64,000 nucleotides of DNA from Thermoplasmatota archaeon (lineage in GTDB: Archaea > Thermoplasmatota > JAKEGO01), in assembly GCA_028279595.1 (NCBI GenBank), contig JANQNK010000003.1, positions 25,367 through 89,366 on the forward strand, given 5' to 3'. The notes beneath the pieces are model-generated. The model had not been told where the DNA came from. It ran no database searches and was given only the letters and a program-made list of their open reading frames with translations. This document shows positions 7,668-52,510 of the stretch, in pieces. Position numbers and translations under genes: made by a program. The first letter of the stretch is position 1. The number at the start of each line of letters is the position of its first letter.

Positions 7668-7983
7668 GACTGTTCAACCTGGCGACACTCCCGACGGGAC
7701 CGGGTGCTTAGGACCTCATTGATAGGTAATTCTAACACCCGGGCCAGTCGGGAGCACGGTAGCTAGAAGGAATGAAGAGGAGTGCTCCCGACGGGATTCC
7801 GGTGGACACACCGTGCCCACCTCTCCCTTAACTCTATCCAATCAGTTGAATAACGTTCAGGGATCGAACTTCGTTCGAATCCCGTATGGCCCCGACGGGA
7901 CCGGTGTATTAAGAACCCAAAGATCTGTCAGATTAATCACCGGGCCAGTCGGGAGCACATTAGCTAGAGGATAATGAAAGGAG

Positions 7984-8058
7984 TGCTCCCGACGGGATTC
8001 GAACCCGTGTCCCCAGCTCGAAAGGCTGGAATGATTGGCCGGGCTACACTACGGGAGC
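7984..8058 (-). tRNA. tRNA-Glu (anticodon TTC)
   Basis: The reverse complement folds as a cloverleaf. The acceptor stem is GCTCCCG/CGGGAGC, the anticodon stem-loop is CCAGC-CTTTCGA-GCTGG, the T-arm is ACGGG-TTCGAAT-CCCGT, and the discriminator is A. CCA is not encoded. A TATA box (TATATAAA, 8075-8082) lies upstream. Confidence 0.85.
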
Positions 8059-10828: not shown

Positions 10829-11383
10829 TCATTTTGTAACAGCGTCCCACAGGACGTCGAAACTATCTTCCAATTCCTTTTCATTGATCTTCTTTCGTTT
10901 AGAAAATTCCATTATGAAGACCTGATGCAGTGTAAACAGAATATTACCGAACATTTCATACGAATATTCTTTCAGGGTACCCTTCTTCATTTCCTCTTCA
11001 TATGCAACCCGATATTTCTTCAGCATTGCTGCAGATGCCAATTGGCTCTCCTTTGAGATGTATTTGGAATTCAGAAAGAGGGTAAAGAAGAGGTTGTAAT
11101 CCATATTCTTCAAGGACCACTTGGTATATCCTATCCAGAATTTCTTCAGTTTCAATTCAAAATCATCTTCTTCAACGTAATATGAGTTCATATCTTCGAG
11201 CATATCATTTTTAATGTGCATATACGCTGCATTCATCAGGGCTTCCTTTGTCTTATAATGGTAGAATAGCGTTCCTGAGGCTACGCCCGATTCTCTGGTG
11301 ATTTGAGCTGTGGGGGTGTTCTCGAATCCTTGTTCGACGAATAGTCTGATCGCGGTTTCCAGGATTTTCTGTTTATTATTCAT
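10829..11383 (-). CDS. TetR/AcrR-family transcriptional regulator
   Basis: 184 aa. It has an N-terminal HTH (ILETAIRLFVEQGFENTPTAQITRESGVASGTLFYHYKTKEAL). The gene is AT-rich (~38% GC) and lies 36 bp downstream of the hydrolase gene, so it is probably in the same operon. Confidence 0.85.
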   Translation of the reverse strand: MNNKQKILETAIRLFVEQGFENTPTAQITRESGVASGTLFYHYKTKEALMNAAYMHIKNDMLEDMNSYYVEEDDFELKLKKFWIGYTKWSLKNMDYNLFFTLFLNSKYISKESQLASAAMLKKYRVAYEEEMKKGTLKEYSYEMFGNILFTLHQVFIMEFSKRKKINEKELEDSFDVLWDAVTK

Positions 11384-11419: not shown

Positions 11420-12316
11420 TTACTTCATATACTTATCGAACCAGCCAAGAATGGGTTTTGGATTGGTACCAATCCAGTCGTAAGCAGCCATTCGGTTGAA
11501 GTTGGCATTCTTCAACTTGGGAATCTCTATCCAGAGCATTTTCTTCTCTACCTTCAGGTCATTGTAATATGTGTTAACAAATTTCTCATCAAGGTAGCCA
11601 TCGTTCTTGTTCTGAATTACTAATGTTGGAATATTGATCGTCTTCACATTATGCATAAATGTATTTGTCGAGTAATCGATCCCTGTTCGGTTTTTGATCT
11701 TTTTATTAACACTTTTAATAAATAATTTAGGCAATGCCCCAGCTTGAATGAACGTCTGATAATCCAGGGGTTGGACAGATACCATGGCTTTCAGATTCTT
11801 GTACTCCCTCAAGCCATCTTCATCCCCGAAAGCATTGGTGGATGCAGCCTGTCCCATACAGATGCTAAATAACCCGATCTTGGCATTTTCATATTCCTTA
11901 TGGTTCGATATGAATTTTACAGCGGCGATGATATCTTTCCTTTCTTCAAGACCCCAGGTGACCCAGGGAATGGTCCCCAAACCACTATTCCCGTGTGCTC
12001 TGAAATCATACATTAGAACGGAATATCCAGAATCATTGAGGTATTTCGCCTGTCTTAGGAAATGTACATCCTTGTGGTATCCTTTAACCATTCCCTTTCC
12101 CTCAAGCGTATAACCTGATCTGCTGCATTGAATCCCGAAATGAGATTGTATTATTACTTTATCCTTGGCGCCTTTGATCAACCATCCTGAAAGTTTTACG
12201 CCATCCGAAGTATCAAATTTGACGTTCTCATAATCAAGACCATACTCCTTTGGATCATCGAACACTTGACCCTGATAAGGTTTAATCATCGCATCTGTCA
12301 GTAAATTCGCAATCAT
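11420..12316 (-). CDS. Alpha/beta-hydrolase-fold protein (dienelactone-hydrolase/BAAT-like)
   Basis: 298 aa. The motif YDFRAHGNSG with a following nucleophile elbow (CMGQAAS) resembles an alpha/beta hydrolase. The gene is AT-rich and sits in the island. Confidence 0.55.
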   Translation of the reverse strand: MIANLLTDAMIKPYQGQVFDDPKEYGLDYENVKFDTSDGVKLSGWLIKGAKDKVIIQSHFGIQCSRSGYTLEGKGMVKGYHKDVHFLRQAKYLNDSGYSVLMYDFRAHGNSGLGTIPWVTWGLEERKDIIAAVKFISNHKEYENAKIGLFSICMGQAASTNAFGDEDGLREYKNLKAMVSVQPLDYQTFIQAGALPKLFIKSVNKKIKNRTGIDYSTNTFMHNVKTINIPTLVIQNKNDGYLDEKFVNTYYNDLKVEKKMLWIEIPKLKNANFNRMAAYDWIGTNPKPILGWFDKYMK

Positions 12317-12349
12317 TTATTCACTTCCTGGAATCACATCTACAACTTA

Positions 12350-12375
12350 ACTGAGTACTCAGTCAGTATTTAAAC
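12350..12375 (-). promoter_or_regulatory. Perfect 14-bp palindrome ACTGAGTACTCAGT next to a TATTTAAA box; putative TetR operator and promoter of the hydrolase-TetR operon
   Basis: A perfect palindrome at 12350-12363 lies between the TATA-like box (12368-12374) and the ATG at 12316. Its arms GAGT/ACTC resemble the palindromes at 15740 and 19595. Confidence 0.45.
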
Positions 12376-12506: not shown

Positions 12507-13073
12507 TCACTTCTTGATCATATCCCACAAGGTAGGGAAGAACTTCTCAATCACCTTCGGGTCCTTGAGCTTCCTTGACGATAGGTAGAGTATGGTAAAA
12601 TTGACGTGTGACATTATCGCCTCCGATAGATAATCCATCGGGAGGTCCTTGATGAGTCCCTCGTCGACAGACCTTTGATAAATGTCTCCCATAAGGTCAA
12701 ATTCCGCAGAGAATTCATCCATTGTGAGCTTGGTGATATATGGCGATGACTTATACATCGCTAGAAATTTCATCTGATTCGGATTCTTTATCCCCCAGGC
12801 GATGCCGATATCCCAGAATGTTTTCACAGCCTCCTCGTTCAACAAGGAATCCTCGGTCAATTGCGGGAAAATGCCCATGAACTCCTGCTTCGTCCCGAGG
12901 TAGAGTTCATTGATCAGTGCCTCCTTGTTCTCGAAGTAGGAGAAGAGTGTCCCAGTACCGACGCCAGCGTCCTTTGTGATACTGGTTGTGGACGTATTGT
13001 CGAATCCTCTTGTCACGAAGAGCTTCAGTGCGCTCCTCATGATGGCATCCCTCTTATTCATCTTTTCACTCAT
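12507..13073 (-). CDS. TetR/AcrR-family transcriptional regulator (paralog of 18126-18716)
   Basis: 188 aa with the HTH AIMRSALKLFVTRGFDNTSTTSITKDAGVGTGTLFSYF. It is ~70-75% identical to the ORF at 18126-18716. It lies 13 bp downstream of the RND exporter gene. Confidence 0.85.
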   Translation of the reverse strand: MSEKMNKRDAIMRSALKLFVTRGFDNTSTTSITKDAGVGTGTLFSYFENKEALINELYLGTKQEFMGIFPQLTEDSLLNEEAVKTFWDIGIAWGIKNPNQMKFLAMYKSSPYITKLTMDEFSAEFDLMGDIYQRSVDEGLIKDLPMDYLSEAIMSHVNFTILYLSSRKLKDPKVIEKFFPTLWDMIKK

Positions 13074-13086
13074 TGTACCACTTAAC

Positions 13087-15702
13087 TCACTTATTGTATT
13101 TTTTTCTATTGCCCGACCTCTGCCTTCGAGATGAGGATCGAGTCCTAGCGATTTTCTTGCGAGCTAGCGGATGGATACGACGTCCCTTCGCAGTAGTCCT
13201 AGCCCATACGACCAGTATGCTTGGCTGTATGAACACCGAGGCCAGTAACGAATAGAGGATCATAAGAGCGGTCAGAGTGCCGAACTGCTGCATCATTCCC
13301 TGCGGGGATAGCGCAAGGATGCCAAAGCCTACCATCGTGGTCACAGCTGCGCCGAAGAGTGCTGTGCCGGTGTGGCTAACTGTAGTGATCACAGCCTTCT
13401 CTATTCTACCATGGTCCTCGAGCTCTTCCGTGAATCGGTGGGTAACATGAATTGCATAGGTCACTCCGAGACCGATGCTGAGTGATCCGATGAGAAGCGT
13501 CATTACATTCAGAGATATGTCGAGGAGGAACATGGTGCCATGGATCCATATGAGTACTAAAATGACCGGGAGTGTGGTGATGATCCCCAAGCTCTTCGAT
13601 TTTACCGAGTTCCAGAATACCAGGGAAAGTACTACAGAGGAAACGACCACAGTGATAATGATCGATGTCAGCATAGAATCATTGATCGCTCCGAGAACGA
13701 GGTTCATTATCACTGGTTCTCCAGTAAGTATCACCCTGTTCACGGTACTCTTCGACTCGAGTCTCTCCAAGGGCGCGGCGTCATCTTCAATGTACGAGAT
13801 TATTTCATCGGTCTTGGAATGTCCCTGTGAGTCTACCCTGATCCGGATCAAGGCGACAGTATATTTTCCGCTATCTTCATCGAAGTACAGGACATTGTCG
13901 AGTTCTCCTGGGTGGTTCTCTGTGATGTACTCGAATAGAACGCTAACATTCGAATCCGGAACATTGTCATCATCAAGATCCTCTGCTCGATACATGGCCT
14001 CGAAATCGGGATCGTAGAGGTCCCCATCGGATACGGTGGACACGTTGGCGAGGTCTCTCATGACCGTAAGCGGGGATTCCACACCATTCCCACCTTGAAA
14101 GAGTATTATCTCTCTATCATCGTTCTCGATGTTCGTATGTGTGGCATCCATGGCCTCGAGCACCTCCGTGGTTGCTACGTTTTCACCTTCGACATAGATG
14201 ATCACGGATTCCTCGGAGAAGTCGAACTCGGTCTGCATGTACTCGAACTCGTCTCTGACCTCGCTACCCTCAGGCAATCCTGCCTCGACGAAATTGAATG
14301 TTGTGGATACCATAGTTGCCAATACCAGCAATATCAGGGTTATTGCAGTCGCTGCCGTCAGTGTCCATTTGGGATGGGATCCCGCAATCTTCCCCCCAAA
14401 ACCCATTGCTTTCGTAAATCCAACCGAGATCGGATTTCTGGTACCGATACCGGAAGCCCTGTCCTTGTTAGACGGTGAGAGGAGATCTTTCCCCTTCTTA
14501 ACTCTGTATGTGTCAATAAGAACCCTACAGGCTGGAACGAAGGTGACGAACACGATATAGGCCGCTAGGATACCTACTGCGACCGTGATCCCGAACTCGC
14601 GGATTGGACCTATATCGGATGTTCCGTTCGATAGGAAACCGATCATACTGGTGAAGGCAGCGAGGAGGAGGGCTGCTCCGGCGGAGACAATGGAGATATC
14701 CGCAGCCTTTCTCACTGTATCACCTTGGGCGATCCGTTCCCTGTATCTCATAGTAAGATGTATGCTGTAGTCCACCCCAAGTCCGATCAGCAAGATGGGG
14801 ACTATGGTGGCAGCCTCGGATGTGTAACCCATGTATATCATGAAGCCTTGGATCCATATCAGAGAGAAAACCAGAGCGAGCAGGCCTATCATCAGATCGC
14901 TTATCGTGCGGAACGTGATCCATAGAACGACGATGATCATTCCAAATGCAATGGGGAACAAGGTGTTCATGGTATAATCCCAACCCTCTTCCATCGTATC
15001 GTTGATCTTCGTGTTCGTGAGCGCGAATGGCCGAACGGAGGAATATTTCCTCTCGGAGACCACCTTGTCAATTCTCCGCTCGATGCGCTCGATCCTATCA
15101 TCTCGATCTTCAGATGTCTCACCAGGCAATATTGTCTTATCAACAGTGACCATCATGAGTGCAGAACGATATTGGCCACCATTTTCTGAGGATGTCAGAA
15201 TATGAATTAATGCTCCAAGGTCAGGGATCTCCAGAGAATCGTTGAATACGCTCCTCAATTCGCTGTTGGTCATATTTCCGTATGATGAGACCAGTGATGA
15301 ATGGTTCCCAGCTTCAGGAAACGCTAGAGGTGCGAGGAGTCGGGGAAGGCTGATGATCCCATCCTGGGAAAGGTTTCCAGATATGACGTCATCCTCTCTC
15401 AATGAAGATTCTAGCTCGAGCATACCGATGAAACAATCAGTCGAAATGATGTCCAGATCCTTATCGGGGGAATTCTCGTGAACCAATACAATGACGTTGT
15501 GGCTCTGGCTGAATTTCTCATCGATATCATCCCTCGCGTCAACCGCCTCATCCCCAGGTATCCATGCATCTTCACCCTGCAAGTCGGCGGCGGGAACGGT
15601 CAAGATGATACCCATCATTATCATCGTGACCAGTACTACGGCCCCGATCGTCAATTCTGGTCTTCCTGTGACCATCTTGCTGACGTTTTTCAATATCTTC
15701 AT
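13087..15702 (-). CDS. RND-superfamily exporter (MMPL domain, COG1033-like)
   Basis: 871 aa. It has two 6-TM bundles, each preceded by a large extracytoplasmic loop, and the typical MMPL/SSD region ...GIGVDYSIHLTMRYRE... and ...GLGVTYAIHVTHRF.... The gene is AT-rich. Confidence 0.85.
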   Translation of the reverse strand: MKILKNVSKMVTGRPELTIGAVVLVTMIMMGIILTVPAADLQGEDAWIPGDEAVDARDDIDEKFSQSHNVIVLVHENSPDKDLDIISTDCFIGMLELESSLREDDVISGNLSQDGIISLPRLLAPLAFPEAGNHSSLVSSYGNMTNSELRSVFNDSLEIPDLGALIHILTSSENGGQYRSALMMVTVDKTILPGETSEDRDDRIERIERRIDKVVSERKYSSVRPFALTNTKINDTMEEGWDYTMNTLFPIAFGMIIVVLWITFRTISDLMIGLLALVFSLIWIQGFMIYMGYTSEAATIVPILLIGLGVDYSIHLTMRYRERIAQGDTVRKAADISIVSAGAALLLAAFTSMIGFLSNGTSDIGPIREFGITVAVGILAAYIVFVTFVPACRVLIDTYRVKKGKDLLSPSNKDRASGIGTRNPISVGFTKAMGFGGKIAGSHPKWTLTAATAITLILLVLATMVSTTFNFVEAGLPEGSEVRDEFEYMQTEFDFSEESVIIYVEGENVATTEVLEAMDATHTNIENDDREIILFQGGNGVESPLTVMRDLANVSTVSDGDLYDPDFEAMYRAEDLDDDNVPDSNVSVLFEYITENHPGELDNVLYFDEDSGKYTVALIRIRVDSQGHSKTDEIISYIEDDAAPLERLESKSTVNRVILTGEPVIMNLVLGAINDSMLTSIIITVVVSSVVLSLVFWNSVKSKSLGIITTLPVILVLIWIHGTMFLLDISLNVMTLLIGSLSIGLGVTYAIHVTHRFTEELEDHGRIEKAVITTVSHTGTALFGAAVTTMVGFGILALSPQGMMQQFGTLTALMILYSLLASVFIQPSILVVWARTTAKGRRIHPLARKKIARTRSSSRRQRSGNRKKYNK

Positions 15703-15735
15703 TCAGATCACCACGGTGACTGTTATTCATATCCA

Positions 15736-15806
15736 TTTCGAGTGACTAATCACTCAATAACATTGGGAGTATATATAATTATTGATTGAGCAGTCACTCA
15801 ATAATT
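15736..15806 (-). promoter_or_regulatory. Conserved operator/promoter element, copy 1: palindrome GAGTGA-CTAA-TCACTC (15740-15755), TATA box (15768-15782) and palindrome ATTGAG-CAGTCA-CTCAAT (15785-15802)
   Basis: It lies 40-100 bp upstream of the RND exporter start. It is ~80% identical over ~75 bp to the element at 19591-19660. Confidence 0.5.
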
Positions 15807-15868: not shown

Positions 15869-16861
15869 CTATGGGACGTTGAGCCTTTCCAATCCGACTA
15901 TACCATAACTGGAATCGACCAGTTTGTTTGCCTTTTCAATATCCCGGGCATTTGGATTGGGGGATTCCATCGGCCAACCGCCTTTCTTACATTGCTTGTC
16001 CCTGTAGAGCACACTCTGTTGGCTGAAATAGGCTCCCGAATGCCTCGGTGCGTCATCAGAGAGCAGACAGTGAAGTGACGTCTGAGCGGACTCCTCGTTG
16101 CTGTTGGTCCAGAAGGGATAGATCGGTGCCATCAGCACCCTCATGATCGTCATCAACAGACCTTTGCCACCGAAGTTCGACCTCGCCCAACCCGGATGTA
16201 CGGAAGCCGTTGTTACACCGGTACCCTCGAGCCGATTGGCAAGTTCTAAAGCGTATAATACATTCGCGACCTTTGCCTCTCCATAAGCCGCGAAGTTTTT
16301 GAATTTCCTTGATTGATAGTTCAGGTCTTCAAGGTGGACATCATGCCTGTTCTTTGGGCTGCCTGCATGAACGACGGACGAAAGAATTACTATCCTCGAA
16401 GGAGCGCTCTTCTTCAATACATCAAGCAGCAGTTCCGTCAACAGGAAATGGCCGAAATAGCTGACCCCTATGGTCATCTCTAGGTCATCCTTCGTACGCT
16501 GGATCTCCCGACCCATCGTCACAAGCCCTGCATTGCATGCTAGACCGTCCAGTCTGTCATATTTCTTCAAGAATTCAGCGACGAAATCCCTCACCGATTG
16601 GAGGTCGGCAAGATCTATCCTCATCACATCATAACTCCCTTTCAGTCCCTTGAAGCTCTTGGCCACCTCCTCTCCCGCTTCCGTTCTCCTACATGCCATG
16701 ACCACATGTCCACCCTGCTTCACAAGCTGTCTTGTCGTCTCAAGACCTACTCCCGAATTGGCCCCGGTTACGATGTACACCTTTCCGCTCATATCTTTAG
16801 CGAGGGTCTTCTCATCGACCCATATGACATCCTTTCTACCCATTCTCATCACCACTTTCAT
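15869..16861 (-). CDS. Short-chain dehydrogenase/reductase (SDR; retinol-DH/WWOX-like)
   Basis: The TGANSGVG cofactor motif and the catalytic YxxxK region (YGEAKVANVLYALE) are present. The N-terminus overlaps the upstream LtrA stop, so the true start may be at an internal Met (16849/16843). Confidence 0.8.
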   Translation of the reverse strand: MKVVMRMGRKDVIWVDEKTLAKDMSGKVYIVTGANSGVGLETTRQLVKQGGHVVMACRRTEAGEEVAKSFKGLKGSYDVMRIDLADLQSVRDFVAEFLKKYDRLDGLACNAGLVTMGREIQRTKDDLEMTIGVSYFGHFLLTELLLDVLKKSAPSRIVILSSVVHAGSPKNRHDVHLEDLNYQSRKFKNFAAYGEAKVANVLYALELANRLEGTGVTTASVHPGWARSNFGGKGLLMTIMRVLMAPIYPFWTNSNEESAQTSLHCLLSDDAPRHSGAYFSQQSVLYRDKQCKKGGWPMESPNPNARDIEKANKLVDSSYGIVGLERLNVP

Positions 16862-18125
16862 TTCTCCGATTGACAGTCAATTCATCCATTTCTTCTGGGA
16901 TCAGGCCTCTCATCCAAGTCATCATTGCCGCGATTATTGGTAGGAAGAGAAGTACGTTGGTGATTACGAGTATTTGGGTCGCCCCCAGGTCCAGAAGGCC
17001 GAAGGGGAGCAGCAGGATTGCCGCGATGGGTAATACCTTCCTGCCCACAGCCAACGGTCGTTCGAATTCTCTAGCTATCTGCAGGGTCTTGACCAAAAGA
17101 GCGATCGATACAAGAACAATGGAAAGGGATACGATTATCGACCAACGCACCCCATCGGGAAGATGGTCTCCCTCGTGTTCTATCATGTAAAGGATCGAGG
17201 CTCCGATGACGGTTATCCCTGCGGTCATTGGGAGATGGAGGTAGAACCATCTCATCGTGTTTGACATCCCCGGGCGGGGCAGTCGACTAGAGACCGTGTC
17301 GAAGTATGTCCACCAGATACCGACCGCCAAAAGGGTACCAAGCATCACCTTGGTGCCGAGCTCCCACGTGATATCATGGTGATCTGCAGCTCCGCTGACA
17401 ACGCTGAACACTATCTCTCCGAGGACGATGATGGTTAGGAGACCAAACCTTTCACTCAGTGAAGGGCTGACACTTGAACCGATCTCGAGCTGTTTCCGGG
17501 CTTCAGGATTCCTCCGACCGATCGCAATGAGCATGGTCGGAAGTATGAGGGAAAGGACGAAAGCGAGAGCCCAGAGATAGAACCGGGCCGGTGGTGCAAT
17601 GAAGATCGAACCCGCGAACAGGACGGTATTGAGTAGGAATACCGCTGAATACGGACCCGACAATGGACGGTGATCCGGGTCATGTACTCCCGTCCTCCAC
17701 CAGAGGAACGTCAGGATGAGCTGGAAACCGGCGTAGGAAAGGGCGAATCCCCGCGACGTATCACCCATGGCATCGTGCGCGAAGATCGCCATCATCACGA
17801 CAGTTGCCATCTGGAGGAAGGTGAAGACCCTCGTCCGGATGTCGTCGTTACCATGTACATCGTGGTACAGGGATCCGTTCAACCACGCCCACCAGACTAA
17901 GACGAACAGGAAGGAGAACTCACCGATGCCTACCCAGGTTATGTGGTGAACCAGCGCATGGGAGAGTTGAGCGATGAGTGCCACGTAGACGAGGTCGTAG
18001 AACAGTTCGAGGAACGTCACTGTTCGATGCTCGGGACGATCCCCTGCCCTTCTTGGTGGTTGCCACCAATGATGTAAGGTCCTAGGACGGGTCCTCATAC
18101 GCCGATGTCCCCCCTGTCGATCCAT
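16836..18125 (-). CDS. Low-temperature-requirement A (LtrA)-family integral membrane protein
   Basis: 429 aa and polytopic. The N-terminal motif VTFLELFYDLVYVALIAQLSH...WWAWLNGSLYHDVHG is characteristic of bacterial LtrA (PF06772). Confidence 0.65.
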   Translation of the reverse strand: MDRQGGHRRMRTRPRTLHHWWQPPRRAGDRPEHRTVTFLELFYDLVYVALIAQLSHALVHHITWVGIGEFSFLFVLVWWAWLNGSLYHDVHGNDDIRTRVFTFLQMATVVMMAIFAHDAMGDTSRGFALSYAGFQLILTFLWWRTGVHDPDHRPLSGPYSAVFLLNTVLFAGSIFIAPPARFYLWALAFVLSLILPTMLIAIGRRNPEARKQLEIGSSVSPSLSERFGLLTIIVLGEIVFSVVSGAADHHDITWELGTKVMLGTLLAVGIWWTYFDTVSSRLPRPGMSNTMRWFYLHLPMTAGITVIGASILYMIEHEGDHLPDGVRWSIIVSLSIVLVSIALLVKTLQIAREFERPLAVGRKVLPIAAILLLPFGLLDLGATQILVITNVLLFLPIIAAMMTWMRGLIPEEMDELTVNRRNESGDENG

Positions 18126-18716
18126 TCACTTCCGGATCATATCCCATCCGGTCGGAAAGAGATCCTCTATGACCTTCGGGTCCTTGATCTTCCTGGATGT
18201 GAGATAGAGTATCGTGGCATACATGTGAGAGGTCGTTGCCTCCATCAGGTAGTCGATGGGCAGGTCCTTTATCAGACCCTCCTCGATCGATCTTTGATAC
18301 AGGTCTCCCAGTAACTCCATTTCATCGGCGATCTCGGATTGCGTGAGCTTGGTGATGTAAGGTGAGGACTTGTACATCACGATGAACTTCATCTTGTCAG
18401 GATTCCTGATCCCCCAGTTGATGCCCAGGTCCCAGAACGTTCTGACGACCTCCTCGGTCAGTAGGGTATCGTCCGACAACGGCGGGAAGATTCCCATGAA
18501 CTCCTTCTTGGTCTCAAGATAGAGCTCGTTGATGAGCGCTTCCTTGCTGTCGAAGTAGTTGAACAGCGTCCCTGTCCCCACCCCGGCATTCTTGCTTATG
18601 TTGGCCGTGGACGTGTTGTCGAAGCCCTTGGTCGTGAAGAGCTTCAATGCGCTCCTCATGATCGCTTCCCTTTTGTCCTTTGGCTTACTCATCGCTACCG
18701 TATCCTCCTGAACCAT
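18126..18716 (-). CDS. TetR/AcrR-family transcriptional regulator (paralog of 12507-13073)
   Basis: 196 aa with the HTH EAIMRSALKLFTTKGFDNTSTANISKNAGVGTGTLFNYF. Its stop abuts the LtrA start. Confidence 0.85.
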   Translation of the reverse strand: MVQEDTVAMSKPKDKREAIMRSALKLFTTKGFDNTSTANISKNAGVGTGTLFNYFDSKEALINELYLETKKEFMGIFPPLSDDTLLTEEVVRTFWDLGINWGIRNPDKMKFIVMYKSSPYITKLTQSEIADEMELLGDLYQRSIEEGLIKDLPIDYLMEATTSHMYATILYLTSRKIKDPKVIEDLFPTGWDMIRK

Positions 18717-18750: not shown

Positions 18751-19575
18751 TCACCTGAAGGCCCGCCGGATCATCCGGTCGTATCCTCGGTCGCCAAAGA
18801 GCCTTCTCATCCAGATCATCGTCCTTGCCATCTGGCCCTTGACATATCTGGTCTTTGGTTTCCTCACGGTCGCAGCCTTAGCGATCGTCTCTCCAAGAAC
18901 CTCCGGATCGGTACCCATCGTTTGCATCCTCGGGCTGTCCATTAACTTGAGGTATGGATCAATCTGACCTTTGTATGCATTTCCATTATCGTACTTTTTC
19001 AACTGTTCTCCGACGACAGCACCAAAGTTCGTCCTTATCGCTCCCGGCTCGATGACCACTACGTCGATACCGAACTCCTTGACCTCGATCCGCAGGCAGT
19101 CAGAGAATCCCTCGATCGCGTGCTTGGTGGCATGGTACCACGCGCCAAGCGGCGTATAGATCTTGCCTCCCATCGAGGATATATTCACTATCCTTCCGGA
19201 CTTCTGCCTCCTCATGTGGGGAAGCACCATCTGGGTCAGCTCGACGAGGCCGAAGTAGTTCACATCGAACTGGTATCTACCATCCTCCATGGGAACGAGT
19301 TCCACGGGACCGTAGAGGCCGAAGCCGGCGTTGTTTATCAGTATGTCGATTCGACGGTCCTTTTCAAGGATCATATCCACCGCTCGCCTGTTGTCTTCGG
19401 TCTTTGAAACGTCCATGCCTATTGGTACGATCCCGAATCTCTTCAGGTCCTCCATCTTGTCGACGCTTCTCGCTCCTGCGTAAACCTTGTGTCCCTGTTT
19501 CGCGAGGATTTTGGCAGCTTCCTTCCCCATTCCGGAGGAGGCTCCCGTAATCAACACAATCTTCTTTTCCATCAT
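18751..19575 (-). CDS. SDR-family oxidoreductase (classical)
   Basis: 274 aa with TGASSGMG, NNAG and YHATKHA (YxxxK) motifs. Confidence 0.85.
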   Translation of the reverse strand: MMEKKIVLITGASSGMGKEAAKILAKQGHKVYAGARSVDKMEDLKRFGIVPIGMDVSKTEDNRRAVDMILEKDRRIDILINNAGFGLYGPVELVPMEDGRYQFDVNYFGLVELTQMVLPHMRRQKSGRIVNISSMGGKIYTPLGAWYHATKHAIEGFSDCLRIEVKEFGIDVVVIEPGAIRTNFGAVVGEQLKKYDNGNAYKGQIDPYLKLMDSPRMQTMGTDPEVLGETIAKAATVRKPKTRYVKGQMARTMIWMRRLFGDRGYDRMIRRAFR

Positions 19576-19590: not shown

Positions 19591-19660
19591 ATTGATTGAC
19601 TAATCAGTCATGTATGGGCTAGTATATATAGTTATTGATTGAATAGTCAGTCAACAATTT
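19591..19660 (-). promoter_or_regulatory. Conserved operator/promoter element, copy 2 (TGATTGACTAATCAGTCA palindrome, AGTATATATAG TATA box, ATTGATTGAATAGTCAGTCAACAAT)
   Basis: It lies 20-85 bp upstream of the SDR gene start (19575). It is ~80% identical to copy 1. Confidence 0.5.
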
Positions 19661-19726: not shown

Positions 19727-21235
19727 TCAAGTATGTCGCCGCTTTCTCCGGTCGACTGCGATGAAGAGTGTTATGATCGCCAAGGCCACCGGCAGGATAG
19801 GCAGTTCAGGAACCTTCTGAGGTGCGCTGTTCTCGGTGTAGTTAATCAATGGATATCGATCCTCCGCACCTGCACTTCCATCGATAGAATATTCGGTCTC
19901 TCCGATGCCATCTCCGTTGCTGTCCGTTCCGTTATAATCTGACCAGTAGTTACCGTGGGTCCCGTTGTCCCAGGTGTTCTTACTGTTGTTGTCGTACCCT
20001 TGCGAGGTGCTCTCACCATTGCTGAGGAAGTTGTTGTGATGGATGACATTATCATAGCTGTCGGCGATGACGCAACCGTAGTCGGTATTGTTGAAGATCT
20101 CATTGTAAGAGACGGTGTTGTTGTTCGAGAAATCATCCAGATCGATCCCATGGATACCGTTCGAATTAACTGTATTGTTACCAATGTCGTTCCTGTAAGA
20201 TGAATCAGAATAGATCCCAGTTTCGTTGTTTGAGCTCACGATGTTATGTAGAAAAATATTGTTCCCGCCCTGATTGATATGGATGCCGTCACCGCTGTTC
20301 ATGCACACAGTGTTGTTCGAGACGTTGTTTCTGAATGCTTCGTAGAAGTATATCCCATACTCACCGTTGGAAATCGCGTTGTTATTACTTATTGAGTTGG
20401 GACCAAAAATGTATCTTAAGTATATTCCATATCGACCGTTCGAGGTCAAATCGTTATCTTTGATGATATTATTGTCACTTGATCTGCTGTAATTCGTTTT
20501 CACACTAAAAGTAGAAATGAGCTTGATACCCAGGTCAGAATTCGCACTTGCATTATTGTCCTTTATTGTGTTGTATGTCGAGGCATCGAGGTATATACCA
20601 AAATAATTTGAACTGACACTATTGTTCTCGATCACAGTGGTGTTGCTGTCGCGTTTAAGATAGATTCCAACATTATTGTGGGTAACGACATTGTTGGAAA
20701 TCGAATTGTTGTTCGAGCCCTTTTGGAAGATACCCGAATCAGTGTTCGAACCGATCAGATTGTACTCAACGGTATTGAAATTGCTCGAGGAGTTCAGGAA
20801 GATGCCATCTCCGCCGTTCCAGCTGATGTTACAATTGACGATCGTGCAGTTCTCTACAGAGGTTAGTAGGATGCCAGAATCAAGGTAGGCTGATCCTGAT
20901 CCAGTAATTTGAAGATGAGATAAATTGACATTATCCGCAGTTATGTTGAGCGTGATCCCACTACCAGTCGCATTTACTATGGTGTTCGAGGAACCATTCC
21001 CGATCAGTGAAAGACTCTTGTTCACAAGAACGTTCTCGAGATACGTCCCATTGAACACGTAGATCGTGTCCCCGTCCGATGATGCGTTAATAGCGTCCTG
21101 TATCGAAGAATGATCGGCCCAACCACCATCATCATCGACGGTAAAGGTCTCTGCTTTGATAGTTGGAAGCGCTTGAAGTGCTATCACGAGGACCATCATC
21201 GTGATCAGCAACCTGGCAATGAATTCCGTCGCCAT
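19727..21235 (-). CDS. Secreted right-handed beta-helix (NosD/PbH1 repeat) protein with a C-terminal TM and basic anchor
   Basis: 502 aa. There is an N-terminal signal peptide. The module TFTVDDDGGWADHSSIQDAINASSDGDTIYVFNGTYLENV is homologous to the N-terminus of the 2028-aa ORF. It has many N-x-S/T sequons and parallel beta-helix repeats. The C-terminus is PILPVALAIITLFIAVDRRKRRHT. The gene is AT-rich. Confidence 0.7.
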   Translation of the reverse strand: MATEFIARLLITMMVLVIALQALPTIKAETFTVDDDGGWADHSSIQDAINASSDGDTIYVFNGTYLENVLVNKSLSLIGNGSSNTIVNATGSGITLNITADNVNLSHLQITGSGSAYLDSGILLTSVENCTIVNCNISWNGGDGIFLNSSSNFNTVEYNLIGSNTDSGIFQKGSNNNSISNNVVTHNNVGIYLKRDSNTTVIENNSVSSNYFGIYLDASTYNTIKDNNASANSDLGIKLISTFSVKTNYSRSSDNNIIKDNDLTSNGRYGIYLRYIFGPNSISNNNAISNGEYGIYFYEAFRNNVSNNTVCMNSGDGIHINQGGNNIFLHNIVSSNNETGIYSDSSYRNDIGNNTVNSNGIHGIDLDDFSNNNTVSYNEIFNNTDYGCVIADSYDNVIHHNNFLSNGESTSQGYDNNSKNTWDNGTHGNYWSDYNGTDSNGDGIGETEYSIDGSAGAEDRYPLINYTENSAPQKVPELPILPVALAIITLFIAVDRRKRRHT

Positions 21236-21405: not shown

Positions 21406-24400
21406 ATGCGAGCCGTTGCAGTCGACCGCGCGCTCTGTATATGTATGTGTTTTGGGATCGTTCTCCTATTCCTGGGAACCGTCACAGCGGTTACCCGTAT
21501 AGTGGACGATGACGGTGGTGGATGGGCCGACTTCACGACTGTCCAGGACGCTGTCGACGCGTCCAGCAATGGCGATAGGATCCGTATCTTTACTGGCACA
21601 TACGTCGAGAACGTCGATGTCGATGTTCCAGTAACGATCATCGGGAACGGAACGGGTGCAGTCACCATCGATGGTGACGGGTCCGGCGACTCACTCCTGC
21701 TTTCCGCCGACTGGATCAATGTCAGCGGTCTGCGGACGTCACAGGCGGATGGATACCCGAACGCCGGCATACACATCACGGGTGACAACTGCAACGTGTC
21801 CGGCGTATTGACCCGCGACAACTATTTCGGTATATTCATCGACGGCGCAACCGATTGCGCCATCCACTCCTGCGAGGTCAGGGACAACTATGGCAGCGGG
21901 ATCCACCTCCAGGAGAGTCATGGCAACACGATCTGGGGCAATACCATCGTGGATAACAATCTCGTTACACCCTCGGACGCTGACCTTATCGGCGAATGGT
22001 CCATGGACGAAGCCTCATGGACAGGGACCCCCGATGAGGTCACTGATACTTCCGGCTCGGACCTGCACGGAACCTCGTCCGGCGGAGTGGACACCTCGGC
22101 GACATCGATAGCCGGCCGGTCCGGCCGGTTCGATGGCTCCGACGACCTGGTCACTGTGGGCGACGATCCGGCCCTCGACATCACCACGGAGATGACCCTG
22201 GAGGCCTGGATGTACGCCGAAGGTGATGTCGCATCCGGGGATATCCATTTCCCTTACTTCGAGTTCGACTACTCGAGCTCTGCCTATCCCGACATCCTGC
22301 ATCTCGATGGTAGACTATATGCCGTTCTCTACACGGGTCCAGGGTCGGATGGCTTCGTCAGGACCCTGTGGCTGTCCGACAACGGTGTCATCGAGGTCGC
22401 TGACAGCTACGAGTTCGACAACTCCTATGGCGGTTATCCCTCTGCGGTGAAGGTCACCGATGGGATCATCGCCGTGGCCTATCAGGGGCCCGGGAACGAT
22501 GGGTTCCTCGCGACCATCGGCTACTCTTCGGACGGTACGATAACGACCCCCGTCATCAATTCAGTCGAATTCCACACCTCCGACGGCAGAACGCCCGACA
22601 TCATCCACGTATCGGGCGACGTCTACGCGATCGCGTTCAGAGGACCCGGTTCCGACGGCTTCATAATCACCTACGAGATCGCCTCGGACGGGACCATAAC
22701 CACGCCTGCCATCGACCAGTACGAGTACGACACCTCCAGCGGTGAGTACCCTGACATGGTCCATGTGGCGGGTGACGTCTTCGCGGTGGTCTATCAGGGT
22801 GCCAGCGACGACGGATTCGTCAGGACCATCGAGATCGCGAGCGACGGGACGATCACAACGCCTTACATCGACTCCTACGAGTTCGATACCACTTATACGG
22901 GACTTCCCCGGATCGTCCAAGTGTCGGGAGATACGTTCGCGGTCACCCACAGGTCGTCCTCCCTCCAGGGATACCTGAGGACACTGGACATCGCTTCGAA
23001 CGGGACGATCTCAGGCCAGCTCGACTCCCTCGTGTTCGACAGCAACATGTGTTACGCTCCAGTGCCCATTCACATGACCGGGGATATCTTCGCGGTCGTC
23101 TACAGGGGGCCCGGCGACGATGGTTGGACCGTTACCCTAGATATCCCGTCGAACGGGGACCTCTCCGCCGGACTTACCGACAGGTTCGAGTTCGAACCGT
23201 CCACCGCCATCTATGGTGAACCGATCCGACTGGCGGACGGCATGGTCGCGGTCGCGTTCCGCGGTCCTGGTTCCGACGGCTTCATCAGTACGTTCGCAAT
23301 CGACGGGAGCGGGACCATGTCCGGTCACAGGGCGGTCCTCGAAGCCTCGAGCGCATACGAATCGAGCGCCGTTCACGTCAGCGGAGAGGTCTACGCGGTA
23401 GCATTCCGCGGTGCCTTCTCCACTGGACGTCTGGTGACTGTGACGATAGCCGACAATGGCACGATGGGAGCCGTGGTCGACACCGTCTTCTTCCAGGACG
23501 AATACGCGGTGAATCCGAACCTCATCCACATCTCCGGTACCACGTACGCCATCGCCCACACCGGACCGGGGAACCTGGGCGACCTGATCACCATCGACAT
23601 CGCAGCGGACGGGAACATCGGTGCCAGTCCACTGGACTCATACAGGTTCGACACCTCCTACTGCTACAAGCCGGACCTCCTCCACGTCTCCGGGGACATA
23701 TACGCCGTCGCCTACGAGGGGCGGAGCAGCGACGGATACGTCAGGACCCTGGAGATCGCATCCAACGGCACGATCGCACAATCTGCGGTGGACTCCTACG
23801 AGTTCCACACCTCGAACGGCAGGGACCCATCGATAGCCCATGTCTCCGGAGACGTCTACATCCTTGCGTTCAGGTCGGGCGGCAACGACGGTTTCGTCAG
23901 GACCTTCGACATGGCGTCCGACGGGAACATCGGAGGGACCATCGACACCTACGAGTTCGACACCTCCAACGGTTACGACCCTGACATCATCCACATCGCT
24001 GGAGATACATATGCCGTGGCCTACCAGGGATCTGGATCGGACGGCTTCATTCGGACGATCGAGGTGGAGACCGATGGTGACATCGATACTCCCTACAACG
24101 ACAGCCTGGAATACGACACATCGGCCGGCAGGACGCCGGACATCTTCCGGATCGACGGAGATACCTTCGGGATCGCCTACAGGGGCTCCAGCGACGACGG
24201 GTTCGTCCGGACCATGGACATCGCGGTCGATGGGTCGATCAGTGCGGTCGTAGATACCCTCGAGTTCGACACGAGCGACGGAGGCGAGCCCTGCGTTCTC
24301 ATGCTTTCCAGCGGGGTCTACGCAGCCTTCTACAGGGGCGGCGACATCGACGGCAAGGTAGCCTCGATGGACATATCGGATGCGGGAGCCGTGGGCGGGG

Positions 24401-27400
24401 TCATCGACACCCTGGCCTTCGAGGCGGACTCCATGAGGATGCCCAGGTTCATCCACATTTCCGGTGACGTCTACGCCATTGCCTACACCGGTGCGAACTC
24501 GGCCGGATTCGTATCGACGATCACCATGGACAGTGACGGAAAGGTATCCTCGGGTCCCATCGACAGATTGATGTTCGAGGCTGGGACCTGCTACGAGCCG
24601 TCCATTGTTCATGTTTCTGGAGACCATTTCGCAATCGCATACCGCGGACCCGACAACGACGGATTCGTGACTACCGTCGAGATATCCACTGATGGTTCCA
24701 TCCCGGGGATGGACGACGTCCTCGAGTTCACGACCGCCGAATGCTACGAGCCATCCATTGTCCACGTGTCCGGCGAATACTTCGCGGTCGCCTTCCGCGG
24801 GAACGGCAACGACGGCTTCATCGTGACCCTCGAGATCTCATCGACAGGAATGATCCTCAGTACCGTGGACATCCTCGAGTTCGACACCGTCGACGGCTAC
24901 TGGCCGGACATCGTCCATGTCGCCGGCGACACCTTCGCCGTAGCCGCACGGGGCCAGGGCGGGGACGGCTTCGTCACCACGGTCGGTATCGCCACCGATG
25001 GGACCATCAGCGGCGTCATCGATGCCCTCGAGTTCGATACATCGGAGTGCAATTACCCCGATCTGTTCCACGTCACAGCGAACCTCTTTGCGGTTGCATA
25101 CCGGGGGTCGGGGAACGACGGTTTCATCCGCTCGTTCACGATCTATCCGAACGGGACCCTGGGGCCGACATTGGACACCTTCGAGTTCGATACGTCGGAG
25201 TGCGCCCACCCCGAGGTCGTACTGATGTCGGGATCCCTGTTCGCGATAGCATATCAGGGTTCAGGATCCGATGGTTTCGTGACCACCATCATGATCTCCT
25301 CGGATGGCGCCATCAGCGACCCATATCTCGACAGGTTCGAGTTCGACGTGTCAGAGGGAAGGGAACCGTGCATCGTCAGACTGTCATCCTCGAACTTCGC
25401 CGTGGCATACCGCGGGTCATACATGGTCGGCTACGTGATCTCCGGCGGGCTCATCGACCTTACAGGCATCAAGGGCATCACCAAATCGGAGGCATACGGG
25501 ATCCATACCGATACCGGACTCGCCTACTGCACACTGAACGGAAACACACTGAGCGGACCCGTCGTACCCGGATGGAACCATGTCGCGATGACCTACGACA
25601 GGACGGCGCTATCGGACCAGCACAGGCTCTACATAAACGGTATCCTGGTCGACACAGCGAACGGGAACGACCCGATCGACACCAACTCCGCCGACCTGAG
25701 GATGGGAGACAGTTTCTGGGGATACATCGACGAGGTTAGGCTGCACGACGCGGCGCTCGACCCGGACGTCCTCAGGGCGGACGTTTCCGCCGGTATCCAT
25801 CTCTGGCTTTCGGAGAACAATACGATCGCCTTCAACGACATCGACGGCAATCGGTTCGGTATCCGCTCCGAGGGGTCGTGGAACGAGGTCGTCAGGAACA
25901 ACAACATCACCTCCAACACCTACTCGGGAATACTGTATACCAGGGATTGCGGCGACAACTCGGTCCTGTACAACATCATAGACGGGAATGGTGACGGGAT
26001 CGTCGTCAACGGAACCGGCAACGTCAATGCGACCCGTAACTACTGGGGATCGCCGGGCGGCCCCTCGGGGTCCGGTCCAGGATCGGGCGACAGCGTCAGC
26101 GGCAATGTGGACTACGGCCCATGGTATGCGACGGTGACGACCACTCCTTCGCGGGAATTCCACAACCTTTCGAAGGGATCCACGGACATCGCACTCTCCG
26201 ACTCCATTTCAGGGGTCATGTCCGCTGCGGAAGCTGGGGACGTCCTCACGATAGGAGCTGGTACGTTCTCCGAGAACATCGTCATCAGCGTATCGATGAC
26301 GGTGAGGGGCGGGGGATCCACAGTGTCAACGATATCCCCGGCAGCAGGCGACACCGTAACGGTATCAGCAGCAAATGTCAGAATAGACAACCTCACCCTC
26401 TCCGGGTCCGGAGACACGATTGTCGCCGGAAGCCAACCGGGGCTCGTCATCAGGGATTCGGTCATCACCTCGACCGGCGGGTTCGCGGTCAATGTCACCG
26501 GAGCCCAGGACGTGAATGCCAGCTACAACCACTGGGGGACCATCTCGCAGTCCGTCATCGAGAGCGGCATTTACGATTCCAATGACAATCCTGTGCTCGG
26601 GACCGTATCCATTGCGCCCTGGTACAATGCGGCCATGGACACGCTCTTCACTCCGGACGGAGACCCGCCGACGACCTCGATGACCATCGGAGACCCGAAC
26701 TTCGGGACCGATCCGATCCTCGTCCTGCCGACCACCAGGTTCACCCTCACCGCCGACGATGGTGCGGGAAGCGGAGTGAACATCACGGTCTACCATCTTG
26801 ACGGCGGCGCACCGGTCACATACACGAATCCCTTCGCTGTCGCAGCCCTCGGCGACCATACGATCGGGTATTACTCGATCGACCTCCTCGGGAACGTCGA
26901 GGCCGTCCACACGTTGAACATCACGGTCGACGACACGGTGCCCTCATCGATCTATCCCGATCTTCAACTATCGATCGCCACCACTCCTGAATACGTCACG
27001 CTAATAGACAGGAACATAACCGTCATCGCAGGAGTGTACAACTATGGCAACTTCACACGGACGGGCGACTACACCTACACCGATCCCGAGACCGGGGGCG
27101 TCGTCTCGGCGACGACAGACGACATCTTCATCATCTTCGAGTACAGCGACGACGGAGCGGTATGGACGGAGTTCGCATACAGACGTATCGATTCCTCTGA
27201 TGTCAGGCCCGGAGGGACCGGCGTCGGAATGGCGAACCACATGGTGACCTCAGACGACCGGTTGGAGTTCCGGGCAACGATCTGGTACGAGCCCAATGAC
27301 GCCACAGGGCAGTACGAACCGACGAACGCGCTCGGAGCCCGGATCCATCCTGATACCGAGGATGTCAATGTCGCGCTGATCGCAGAGAAGACCCAGACAG

Positions 27401-27492
27401 GCACCTCGTTCATGCCCGGGACAGCAGCCCTTGCCGTGGCGGCCGTCGCTGCCTCTGCAGTGATATGTCATGTCAGAAAGGATGAGGACTGA
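21406..27492 (+). CDS. Giant (2028 aa) surface protein: NosD-like beta-helix, a LamG jelly-roll split by ~22 tandem 47-aa repeats, more beta-helix, and a PGF-CTERM-like tail
   Basis: It has a signal peptide. The first LamG_3 half is at ~21976-22250 (GEWSMDEASWTGTPDEVTDTSGSDLHGTSSGG...LEAWMYAEGD). The second half is at ~25486-25770 (WNHVAMTYDRTALSDQHRLYINGILVD...GYIDEVRLHDAALDPDVL). The repeat consensus is YEFDTSxGxxPDIIHVSGDxYAVAYRGxGxDGFVRTxxIASDGTIxxxxIDS. The C-terminus MPGTAALAVAAVAASAVICHVRKDED has a P-G-T motif, a TM helix and basic residues. Confidence 0.75.
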   Translation: MRAVAVDRALCICMCFGIVLLFLGTVTAVTRIVDDDGGGWADFTTVQDAVDASSNGDRIRIFTGTYVENVDVDVPVTIIGNGTGAVTIDGDGSGDSLLLSADWINVSGLRTSQADGYPNAGIHITGDNCNVSGVLTRDNYFGIFIDGATDCAIHSCEVRDNYGSGIHLQESHGNTIWGNTIVDNNLVTPSDADLIGEWSMDEASWTGTPDEVTDTSGSDLHGTSSGGVDTSATSIAGRSGRFDGSDDLVTVGDDPALDITTEMTLEAWMYAEGDVASGDIHFPYFEFDYSSSAYPDILHLDGRLYAVLYTGPGSDGFVRTLWLSDNGVIEVADSYEFDNSYGGYPSAVKVTDGIIAVAYQGPGNDGFLATIGYSSDGTITTPVINSVEFHTSDGRTPDIIHVSGDVYAIAFRGPGSDGFIITYEIASDGTITTPAIDQYEYDTSSGEYPDMVHVAGDVFAVVYQGASDDGFVRTIEIASDGTITTPYIDSYEFDTTYTGLPRIVQVSGDTFAVTHRSSSLQGYLRTLDIASNGTISGQLDSLVFDSNMCYAPVPIHMTGDIFAVVYRGPGDDGWTVTLDIPSNGDLSAGLTDRFEFEPSTAIYGEPIRLADGMVAVAFRGPGSDGFISTFAIDGSGTMSGHRAVLEASSAYESSAVHVSGEVYAVAFRGAFSTGRLVTVTIADNGTMGAVVDTVFFQDEYAVNPNLIHISGTTYAIAHTGPGNLGDLITIDIAADGNIGASPLDSYRFDTSYCYKPDLLHVSGDIYAVAYEGRSSDGYVRTLEIASNGTIAQSAVDSYEFHTSNGRDPSIAHVSGDVYILAFRSGGNDGFVRTFDMASDGNIGGTIDTYEFDTSNGYDPDIIHIAGDTYAVAYQGSGSDGFIRTIEVETDGDIDTPYNDSLEYDTSAGRTPDIFRIDGDTFGIAYRGSSDDGFVRTMDIAVDGSISAVVDTLEFDTSDGGEPCVLMLSSGVYAAFYRGGDIDGKVASMDISDAGAVGGVIDTLAFEADSMRMPRFIHISGDVYAIAYTGANSAGFVSTITMDSDGKVSSGPIDRLMFEAGTCYEPSIVHVSGDHFAIAYRGPDNDGFVTTVEISTDGSIPGMDDVLEFTTAECYEPSIVHVSGEYFAVAFRGNGNDGFIVTLEISSTGMILSTVDILEFDTVDGYWPDIVHVAGDTFAVAARGQGGDGFVTTVGIATDGTISGVIDALEFDTSECNYPDLFHVTANLFAVAYRGSGNDGFIRSFTIYPNGTLGPTLDTFEFDTSECAHPEVVLMSGSLFAIAYQGSGSDGFVTTIMISSDGAISDPYLDRFEFDVSEGREPCIVRLSSSNFAVAYRGSYMVGYVISGGLIDLTGIKGITKSEAYGIHTDTGLAYCTLNGNTLSGPVVPGWNHVAMTYDRTALSDQHRLYINGILVDTANGNDPIDTNSADLRMGDSFWGYIDEVRLHDAALDPDVLRADVSAGIHLWLSENNTIAFNDIDGNRFGIRSEGSWNEVVRNNNITSNTYSGILYTRDCGDNSVLYNIIDGNGDGIVVNGTGNVNATRNYWGSPGGPSGSGPGSGDSVSGNVDYGPWYATVTTTPSREFHNLSKGSTDIALSDSISGVMSAAEAGDVLTIGAGTFSENIVISVSMTVRGGGSTVSTISPAAGDTVTVSAANVRIDNLTLSGSGDTIVAGSQPGLVIRDSVITSTGGFAVNVTGAQDVNASYNHWGTISQSVIESGIYDSNDNPVLGTVSIAPWYNAAMDTLFTPDGDPPTTSMTIGDPNFGTDPILVLPTTRFTLTADDGAGSGVNITVYHLDGGAPVTYTNPFAVAALGDHTIGYYSIDLLGNVEAVHTLNITVDDTVPSSIYPDLQLSIATTPEYVTLIDRNITVIAGVYNYGNFTRTGDYTYTDPETGGVVSATTDDIFIIFEYSDDGAVWTEFAYRRIDSSDVRPGGTGVGMANHMVTSDDRLEFRATIWYEPNDATGQYEPTNALGARIHPDTEDVNVALIAEKTQTGTSFMPGTAALAVAAVAASAVICHVRKDED

Positions 27493-52098: not shown

Positions 52099-52510
52099 TG
52101 TTACTGTTTTCAACCATCGCTCTCATTTCATTATTCGTGCTGCAGTCCGGTTTTCAGGTACTGGCTCCCCCGATTTCGGGCTGTTCCACGGGTTCCACCG
52201 GAAATCCGATTGTAACATGTTTTCTAATGTGTATATATACTCAATTTTACGAACGTATTCTCACAGGGGAGGGAATTGGAGAACGCTCCGGATGATCTTC
52301 GTTCACCCGAACATCCGGCCCGGTTTTCGATTGCCTCGCTCTCCACAAAGGGGGGAGCATGAATATCCGTCCGACGGACAGACCATCCACCTGCTCGTTC
52401 GGGCCTGTCACCTCGCATTCGTTTTGCACCCCCCGCCCCACTCCCCAGCGTCGTCCATTTTAGAAACCTTTTACAACCAATTCACACATCCTTGACATGG
52501 GGACCCTGTT

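Follow-up and report, generated by a model that had tools for sequence, protein, structure and literature searches.

The 64-kb stretch of DNA analysed here (the window) carries, between about 10.75 and 21.4 kb, a low-GC island (37-53% GC against ~60% in its flanks) that contains three TetR-encoding operons and a NosD/beta-helix gene. All the genes of the TetR-operon region lie on the - strand. Operon 1 codes for an RND exporter of the MMPL/HAE3 type and the regulator TetR1; the best NCBIfam match of the exporter was HAE3 (TIGR00921), at a score under the cutoff of that model. Operon 2 codes for a short-chain dehydrogenase (SDR), the regulator TetR2, an LtrA-family membrane protein and a second SDR, the gene for which stops 67 nt before the upstream box (O1u) of the operon 1 promoter. 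The terminator scan returned hits at chance level only and no terminator-like signal between operon 2 and O1u, so read-through from operon 2 into operon 1 may occur. Operon 3 codes for an alpha/beta hydrolase and the regulator TetR3. The coordinates of these genes and of their promoter features are collected in Table 1.

The label "LtrA", which had been given in an earlier note on this sequence, holds in the sense of the low-temperature-requirement membrane protein (PF06772). LtrA as a group II intron protein was ruled out, with no group II intron detected by Rfam; searched at gathering thresholds, Rfam returned three tRNAs only in the window. Elsewhere in the window, a second MMPL-family exporter of 936 aa is encoded in the high-GC part (36048-38858, +), with no adjoining TetR gene and no box. 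Next to the 502-aa NosD/beta-helix gene of the island (19727-21235), a 2028-aa protein is encoded at 21406-27492 (+). It contains well over a dozen tandem repeats of ~51-52 aa (153/156-nt period, ~22300-25400) followed by a NosD/beta-helix region, and its gene is transcribed divergently from the 502-aa gene.

Table 1 Genes and promoter features of the three TetR operons in the window
Feature	Positions	Strand	Details
TetR3, 184 aa, operon 3	10829-11383	-	TetR1/TetR2 family; 30% identical to TetR1
Alpha/beta hydrolase, operon 3	11420-12316	-	45% identical to the hydrolase of the L001 operon
Fifth box	12347-12366	-	CTGACTGAGTACTCAGTTAA; 2 mismatches to the box pattern, 1 to the looser pattern; directly after the TATA box
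TATA box, third promoter	12367-12374	-	TTTAAATA
TetR1, 188 aa, operon 1, gene 2	12507-13073	-	TetR_N 1.8e-13; 13 nt past the MMPL gene
MMPL/HAE3-type RND exporter, operon 1, gene 1	13087-15702	-	Pfam MMPL 5.5e-42
Downstream box O1d	15738-15757	-	TTGAGTGATTAGTCACTCGA; 1 mismatch
TATA box, MMPL-TetR1 promoter	15770-15778	-	TTATATATA; contains the 8-mer of the native tRNA-Arg promoter
Upstream box O1u	15782-15801	-	TTGAGTGACTGCTCAATCAA; 0 mismatches to the box pattern
Second short-chain dehydrogenase, last in operon 2	15869-16861	-	adh_short 1e-29
LtrA-family membrane protein, operon 2	16836-18125	-	PF06772, 9e-72
TetR2, 196 aa, operon 2	18126-18716	-	71% identical to TetR1, 75% to the L001 TetR
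Short-chain dehydrogenase, operon 2, gene 1	18751-19575	-	adh_short 3.4e-48
Downstream box O2d	19592-19611	-	ATGACTGATTAGTCAATCAA; 1 mismatch
TATA box, SDR-TetR2-LtrA-SDR promoter	19623-19630	-	TATATATA
Upstream box O2u	19635-19654	-	TTGACTGACTATTCAATCAA; 0 mismatches

An archaeal host with native TATA promoters

The host of this DNA is an uncultured Thermoplasmata archaeon. The window opens with separate genes for the RNA polymerase subunits A' (886 aa, Rpb1 domains 1-5) and A'' (480 aa), a split that is an archaeal trait, and the best named relatives of A'' were from Thermoplasmata (68% identity). Downstream of rpoA'', an independent assembly has the genes for L7Ae and NusA-KH. From the split RpoA'/A'', its Thermoplasmata relatives and the L7Ae/NusA-KH genes, the host was taken to be one that transcribes with archaeal RNA polymerase, TBP and TFB.

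The native promoters of the window agree with this assignment. The tRNA-Arg gene is preceded by the TATA box CATATATATAG, which includes TATATATA and ends 22 nt before the mature 5' end, and the tRNA-Glu gene by TTTATATA, which ends 27 nt before it; at two leaderless-looking genes the TATA boxes end 24-25 nt before the ATG. The sequence TATATATA occurs four times in the window (0.16 expected), namely in the promoters of operons 1 and 2, in the tRNA-Arg promoter and at 52232. The two operon promoters hence carry an 8-bp box like the native ones, which end 22-27 nt upstream of RNA 5' ends. The earlier note had remarked on an archaeal-style TATA box among bacterial-type genes. As the genome is archaeal, with tRNA promoters that themselves use TATATATA and TTTATATA, a TATA box of the native type is what would be expected and the seeming paradox falls away; the bacterial flavour of the regulators stands, since both the TetR clade and the box are closest to their Bacteroidota versions.

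Transcription starts were predicted by adding 22-25 nt to the 3' end of each TATA box, a distance calibrated on the two tRNAs and the two leaderless-looking genes. This places the starts at 15745-15748 (the centre of O1d), at 19598-19601 (the centre of O2d) and, for the third promoter, at 12342-12345, just past the fifth box, which accordingly lies at about -22 to -3. Against the start predicted for operon 1 stands the fact that the first AUG of the resulting mRNA (15736) does not share the reading frame of the MMPL gene; GGTGA is found five nucleotides upstream of the MMPL start at 15702. That first AUG opens a 54-codon ORF (15572-15736, -), which begins 11 nt past the predicted mRNA start, runs across the start codon of the MMPL gene in a different frame and codes for a highly charged product. 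It is probably not a gene.

Two further observations concern the native promoters and the tRNAs. The fourth TATATATA (52232-52239) is found before a stretch of ~270 nt without an obvious ORF (52240-52510), upstream of a gene at 52511. Relaxing the Rfam search of this stretch to E=1 still returned no match, and its predicted fold was not better than that of shuffled sequences (z -0.9); it may represent an extended leader or a small RNA that has escaped annotation. Downstream of tRNA-Glu and tRNA-Arg (7690-8000 and 53103-53212, -) lie, respectively, two tandem units of ~200 nt and one such unit, each made of a copy of the tRNA 3' T-arm/acceptor, a conserved TCCTCTCATTATCTTCTAGCTAA and a long hairpin, in this order. 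In its outer stem the hairpin reproduces the acceptor strands of the tRNA next to it, and the Glu and Arg versions differ by compensatory changes. The units were called as tRNA by neither ARAGORN nor Rfam, and their fold was marginal (z -2.0); repeats derived from tRNA, scars of integration or a co-transcribed RNA could explain them.

Two promoter elements built on a common box

The regions at 15736-15806 (copy 1) and 19591-19660 (copy 2) had been described as ~80% identical promoter/operator elements at the heads of two operons, each with a TetR paralogue. This description is borne out by our analysis: both positions are correct, the elements share 56 of 73 aligned columns (77%), and the paralogues are 71% identical at the amino-acid level. 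The account of the palindromes had to be changed. Each element was said to carry two distinct inverted repeats, and in copy 1 both of these are indeed perfect (GAGTGA-CTAA-TCACTC, 15740-15755, and ATTGAG-CAGTCA-CTCAAT, 15785-15802). In copy 2, GATTGA-CTAA-TCAGTC (19594-19609) pairs at only 5 of 6 positions and the second repeat, ATTGAA/GTCAAC, at only 3 of 6 in the register used before. There is instead a single type of box, present twice in each element, and one common register fits all four sites. This box, TTGAsTGA-N4-TCAnTCAA on the - strand, spans 20 bp with 8-bp arms.

In each promoter, TATATATA is bracketed by the two boxes, at start-to-start distances of 44 bp (copy 1) and 43 bp (copy 2). 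A gap of 4 nt separates the 3' edge of the upstream box from the TATA box, so that the upstream boxes reach into the position of the BRE. On the 3' side of O2d, a Shine-Dalgarno sequence (AAGGAGGT) is followed by the ATG at 19575. Overlapping registers of the box, shifted by 4 bp, were also recognised, together with a 4-nt periodicity. The fourth position of the arm is variable, being G in copy 1 and C in copy 2 and in the related contig described below. Paralogue-specific recognition was considered as an explanation of this G/C difference in the left arm and was rejected as unsupported, because the position varies within the family and even from one arm to the other of a single site.

A motif scan of the 64-kb window yielded one further copy of the box. 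With up to 2 mismatches allowed, the pattern matched five times, at the four sites and at 12347-12366, against 0.09 matches expected on both strands; none of 100 shuffled sequences reached the observed number. The looser pattern TGANTGANNNNTCANTCA, with at most 1 mismatch, returned the identical five sites (0.26 expected in the window), and all five fit TGAnTGA-N4-TCAnTCA (equivalently 7-N6-7) with 0-2 mismatches. All are intergenic and fall in three regions, each of which heads an operon that encodes a TetR of one family. Neither the third TetR gene nor the fifth box had featured in the earlier note.

The box across homologous loci

Close relatives of TetR1 were few: apart from itself and TetR2, there was one protein at 65% identity. 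It is encoded on a related contig, L001 (NCBI MAG GCA_028279645.1), from the same sample as the window (SRR20820740). The L001 operon comprises an SDR, a hydrolase, an SDR, a 68-aa ORF, the TetR (65-75% identical to TetR1/TetR2) and a methyltransferase. Its promoter likewise has two boxes, 43 bp apart, and between them GTATAAGTA, a poorer TATA sequence. In an alignment of the three promoters (the two window copies and L001), about 31 of the 40 box columns are invariant (15 of 20 in O1u). It is in the two boxes and around the TATA sequence that invariant columns cluster; they are almost missing from the flanks and from the spacer between TATA and box. We count this conservation as a likely sign of selection on the boxes. 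Over the last 4 kb of the L001 contig (16001-20046), GC content drops from 47-60% to ~35%; this end may have been acquired as well, or may reflect a mis-join.

We also compared 80 homologous loci, from Bacteroidota, Acetobacterium, Spirochaetes, Rhodoferax and many Methanobacteriaceae. With at most 1 mismatch, the box pattern was found 40 times in the 32.5 kb flanking the TetR genes and 3 times in the remaining 816 kb of these loci, a 335-fold enrichment near TetR. A flanking match was present in 31 of the 80 loci. The box thus tracks the TetR genes across phyla, on both sides of the gene, and this distribution suggests that the boxes belong to this TetR family. The core of O2d, TGACTGATTAGTCA, is identical to boxes beside bacterial homologues, and L001 shares the box TGACTGATTAGTCATTCA with L006, a locus whose neighbouring genes look bacterial. 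Genes that adjoin the box elsewhere code for aldo-keto reductases with Fe-S domains, an outer-membrane efflux protein, an SDR and a CYP102-type P450 fusion.

In the Methanobacteriaceae, the TetR gene is typically preceded by a TATA box of the TTTAAATA type (variants include TATAAATA and ATTAAATA) with a box 1-6 nt later, as seen in 13 of the 15 loci displayed; the exceptions are L037, which has none, and L039, where the arrangement lies further upstream. A second box precedes the next gene in most Methanobacteriaceae loci. TATA then box is also the layout of the third window promoter, which in this respect resembles the Methanobacterium homologues. As an observation in its own right, loci L013, L015, L022, L023, L029-L032 and L039 form a conserved two-promoter regulon with TATA and box before the TetR gene and, in most of them, the second box before an aldo-keto reductase with a 4Fe-4S domain. 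TetR and reductase are paired in Acetobacterium and Spirochaetes as well, a pattern that points to repeated exchange between domains.

Two boxes that bracket a TATA box were found only in the window (twice) and in L001, among 88 loci. A single metagenome-wide scan for TCAATCAA-N20-28-TGASTGATTAGTCA returned no further dual-box promoter. The sole contig that it picked out, L087, has no upstream palindrome and no nearby TetR gene, and was judged a chance match.

Relation to characterised TetR regulators

A profile of the TetR family was compared with known structures. The best matches were several uncharacterised TetR structures, followed by RamR (3vvx, 4.6e-29) and the FadR proteins of Bacillus subtilis (3whb, 1.6e-21) and B. 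halodurans (5gp9/5gpc, 3.5e-20). Coverage extended over the DNA-binding and the ligand-binding domains (positions 2-187 of 188 against RamR and 3-170 against FadR). The match to 6el2, which we take to be the FadR of Sulfolobus acidocaldarius, was weaker (9.5e-17). Against a provisional RamR sequence, TetR1 was 31% identical over 132 aa; the relationship to RamR is taken from the structure profile instead.

On its sequence, the box is a putative TetR operator of the known FadR/RamR/FatR type. The RamR operator is a 20-bp inverted repeat, ATGAGTG-N6-CACTCAT (PMC4310594), and O1d, read in the same way, is tTGAGTG-ATTAGT-CACTCga. At the ramA/romA promoter of Salmonella, the RamR box lies directly after an AT-rich core element (TATAATGAGTG...) (PMC5645378), as the fifth box does at the third promoter of the window, and RamR targets also include efflux. 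The RamR systems of Salmonella and Klebsiella differ in having a sigma-70 promoter with one operator region and divergent genes, whereas here archaeal TATA promoters carry two boxes each and the regulator gene lies inside the operon; identity to RamR is only ~30%.

In the crystal structure of FadR (YsiA) of Bacillus with its box, WTGAATGAMTANTCATTCAN, two dimers sit as a dimer of dimers on a pair of 16-bp repeats with an offset of 4 bp (PMC5397183). This box resembles the present box in length and in its layout of arms and spacer, and the offset fits the periodicity seen here. Binding of two dimers with such an offset would account for the 4-nt periodicity, for the shifted registers and for the two apparent palindromes reported before. 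The fourth arm position is A or T in Bacillus but G, C or A here, and the B. subtilis and B. halodurans proteins respond to acyl-CoA and govern a beta-oxidation regulon, in contrast to the exporter, dehydrogenases and hydrolase encoded here. FatR/Bm3R1, also part of this wider group, are TetR repressors of CYP102 that are displaced by fatty acids (PMC3814354). In locus L083 (Guptibacillus), the box TGAATGAACGTTCATTCC lies between a TetR gene of the present family and the adjoining CYP102-type P450-reductase fusion, and detoxification of lipophilic compounds is a theme common to both; FatR/Bm3R1 differ in being bacterial, 28% identical and served by one operator.

Among archaea, the only characterised TetR regulator is FadR of S. 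acidocaldarius, a ligand-released repressor that binds a semi-palindromic 16-bp motif as one or two dimers (PMC6449355). It is autoregulated through a site just downstream of its own start, where binding of TBP/TFB is not prevented, and most of its sites lie >130 bp from promoters (PMC6449355). The likeness is that of an archaeal TetR acting on itself near its own start, which for the present operons is our inference; the protein belongs to another TetR clade, and the boxes described here sit tight on both sides of the TATA box. In other protein families, LrpA and MDR1 bind just downstream of the TATA box and block recruitment of RNA polymerase, and Lrs14 occludes the whole promoter and blocks TBP/TFB (PMC2995911). 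The two boxes stand at positions suited to both of these modes, although the proteins are unrelated. In the literature, we found no description of an archaeal TetR with TATA-flanking operators beyond the FadR of Sulfolobus, nor of both positions combined in one TetR-controlled promoter.

Origin of the operons

The earlier note had proposed that the circuit was duplicated together with its cargo. Duplication fits the promoter core (~75 bp, 77%) and the TetR gene (73-75% at the DNA level) but does not extend to the cargo: operon 1 carries the MMPL/HAE3 exporter, operon 2 the SDR, LtrA and SDR genes, and contiguous homology over whole operons is absent. In a rough neighbour-joining tree without support values, TetR1, TetR2 and the L001 TetR were placed beside Reichenbachiella within a Bacteroidota group, apart from the Methanobacteriaceae clade; TetR3 sat on a long separate branch. 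The part of the island that holds the hydrolase and TetR3 genes is the most AT-rich (~38-42% GC) and has the Methanobacterium-style TATA and box promoter. An independent short-read (Logan) assembly spans the left junction of the island into a saccharopine dehydrogenase gene, which argues against an assembly chimera. The tree placement and the low GC content suggest that the TetR protein and its box were acquired from bacteria, with a rebuilding of the promoter thereafter.

Proposed regulation and alternative explanations

The sequence anatomy, the archaeal host, the homology of the TetR proteins to RamR and FadR and the family-wide co-occurrence of box and TetR gene lead us to propose that operons 1 and 2 are headed by an archaeal core promoter bracketed by two boxes of the FadR/RamR/FatR type. 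A ligand-released TetR probably represses its own operon there by blocking TFB/TBP and the polymerase. Without ligand, the operon's own TetR, and probably its paralogue too, would bind both boxes, each of which might take a dimer of dimers by analogy with B. halodurans FadR. On the upstream box the repressor would clash with TFB/TBP at the BRE; on the downstream box, centred on the predicted start, it would block recruitment of RNA polymerase. A small, probably lipophilic ligand would then release the repressor and switch on the exporter, the dehydrogenases and the repressor gene itself. As the repressor gene lies inside each operon, the circuit would be negatively autoregulated. We infer release by a lipophilic ligand from the family (RamR, FadR and FatR) and from the cargo (an HAE3-type exporter, dehydrogenases, a hydrolase and LtrA). 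The behaviour of S. acidocaldarius FadR, with its distant sites and unimpeded TBP/TFB at its own promoter, counts against the blocking proposed here.

The two boxes could alternatively belong to tandem modules of TATA and box, a weak upstream TATA firing past the upstream box and the central TATATATA at the downstream box, which would also be a roadblock on the longer transcript. This is conceivable because L001 and, weakly, copy 2 have a TATA-like sequence upstream of the upstream box: CTATATAG, the better TATA of that promoter, lies one nucleotide before it in L001, and the weaker TATACAAA four nucleotides before it in copy 2. The order TATA then box is, moreover, that of the 13 Methanobacteriaceae loci and of the third promoter (12347-12374). 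Nothing TATA-like precedes O1u in copy 1 (CCGAATTAT), and the central TATATATA is conserved in both window copies and equals the native tRNA-Arg TATA, so we consider tandem promoters unlikely. A regulator of dual function, activating from the upstream box through recruitment of TBP/TFB in the manner of Ptr2, LysM and Ss-LrpB and repressing from the downstream one, would have precedent in archaeal activators, which typically bind a few bp upstream of the BRE (PMC2995911), and in S. acidocaldarius FadR, which stimulates TBP/TFB interaction at its own promoter (PMC6449355). The upstream box, which stops 4 nt short of the TATA box, occupies part of the BRE position instead of a place upstream of it, the same box sequence recurs over the predicted start, and RamR, FadR and FatR are all repressors; we hold a dual role to be distinctly improbable.

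Two further readings dispense with an archaeal promoter or with a protein operator. Each box could form a hairpin of 6-8 bp, and the element is repeated within the low-GC island, as might be expected of RNA hairpins in the 5' leader or of a mobile-element or recombination site. The predicted start would cut the downstream palindrome in half and leave the upstream box untranscribed, no flanking repeats or transposase genes were found, and the motif accompanies TetR genes in different phyla, on either side of the gene, leaving these explanations very little likelihood. If the DNA is of bacterial origin, the TATA-like stretch could also be read as the -10 element of a sigma-70 promoter whose -35 element falls in the upstream box: a consensus scan gave GTGACT-18-TATACT and CTGACT-18-TATACT at the two elements (9 of 12 positions each), and the TetR clade is nearest to Bacteroidota. 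Matches of 9/12 are no better than the chance matches in coding DNA (16 found, 8.7 expected), the contig carries an archaeal RNA polymerase and archaeal-type tRNA promoters, and the independent assembly joins the island to its high-GC flank; such a promoter is scarcely credible here.

Returning to ligand-released repression from boxes around the TATA box, a more elaborate version can be put forward tentatively, although we regard it as rather doubtful. A Bacteroidota-like TetR-operator pair might have entered Thermoplasmata, where two dimer-of-dimer boxes about four helical turns apart would clamp the TBP/TFB site, possibly cooperatively, and cross-binding of the paralogues would form a two-ligand gate over the exporter and dehydrogenase operons. 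If true, this would be a promoter design not described for archaeal TetRs.

Significance

The arrangement is an ordinary self-regulating repressor switch with a box of known type, and no new class of mechanism is involved. What is new is the box on archaeal TATA promoters, used twice and on both sides of the TATA box. The same type of box is thus met after the -10 element in Enterobacteria, after the TATA box in Methanobacterium and on both TATA sides here; on our reading of one locus, it may also follow a sequence resembling the Bacteroidota -7 element. The operons offer a testable case of a bacterial-type repressor and its box plugged into the eukaryote-like transcription machinery of archaea. 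Studies of archaeal TetR regulators are very few, so that in vitro transcription work would find handy templates in the three promoters, and they may provide compact, probably ligand-switchable promoter parts for archaeal genetics.
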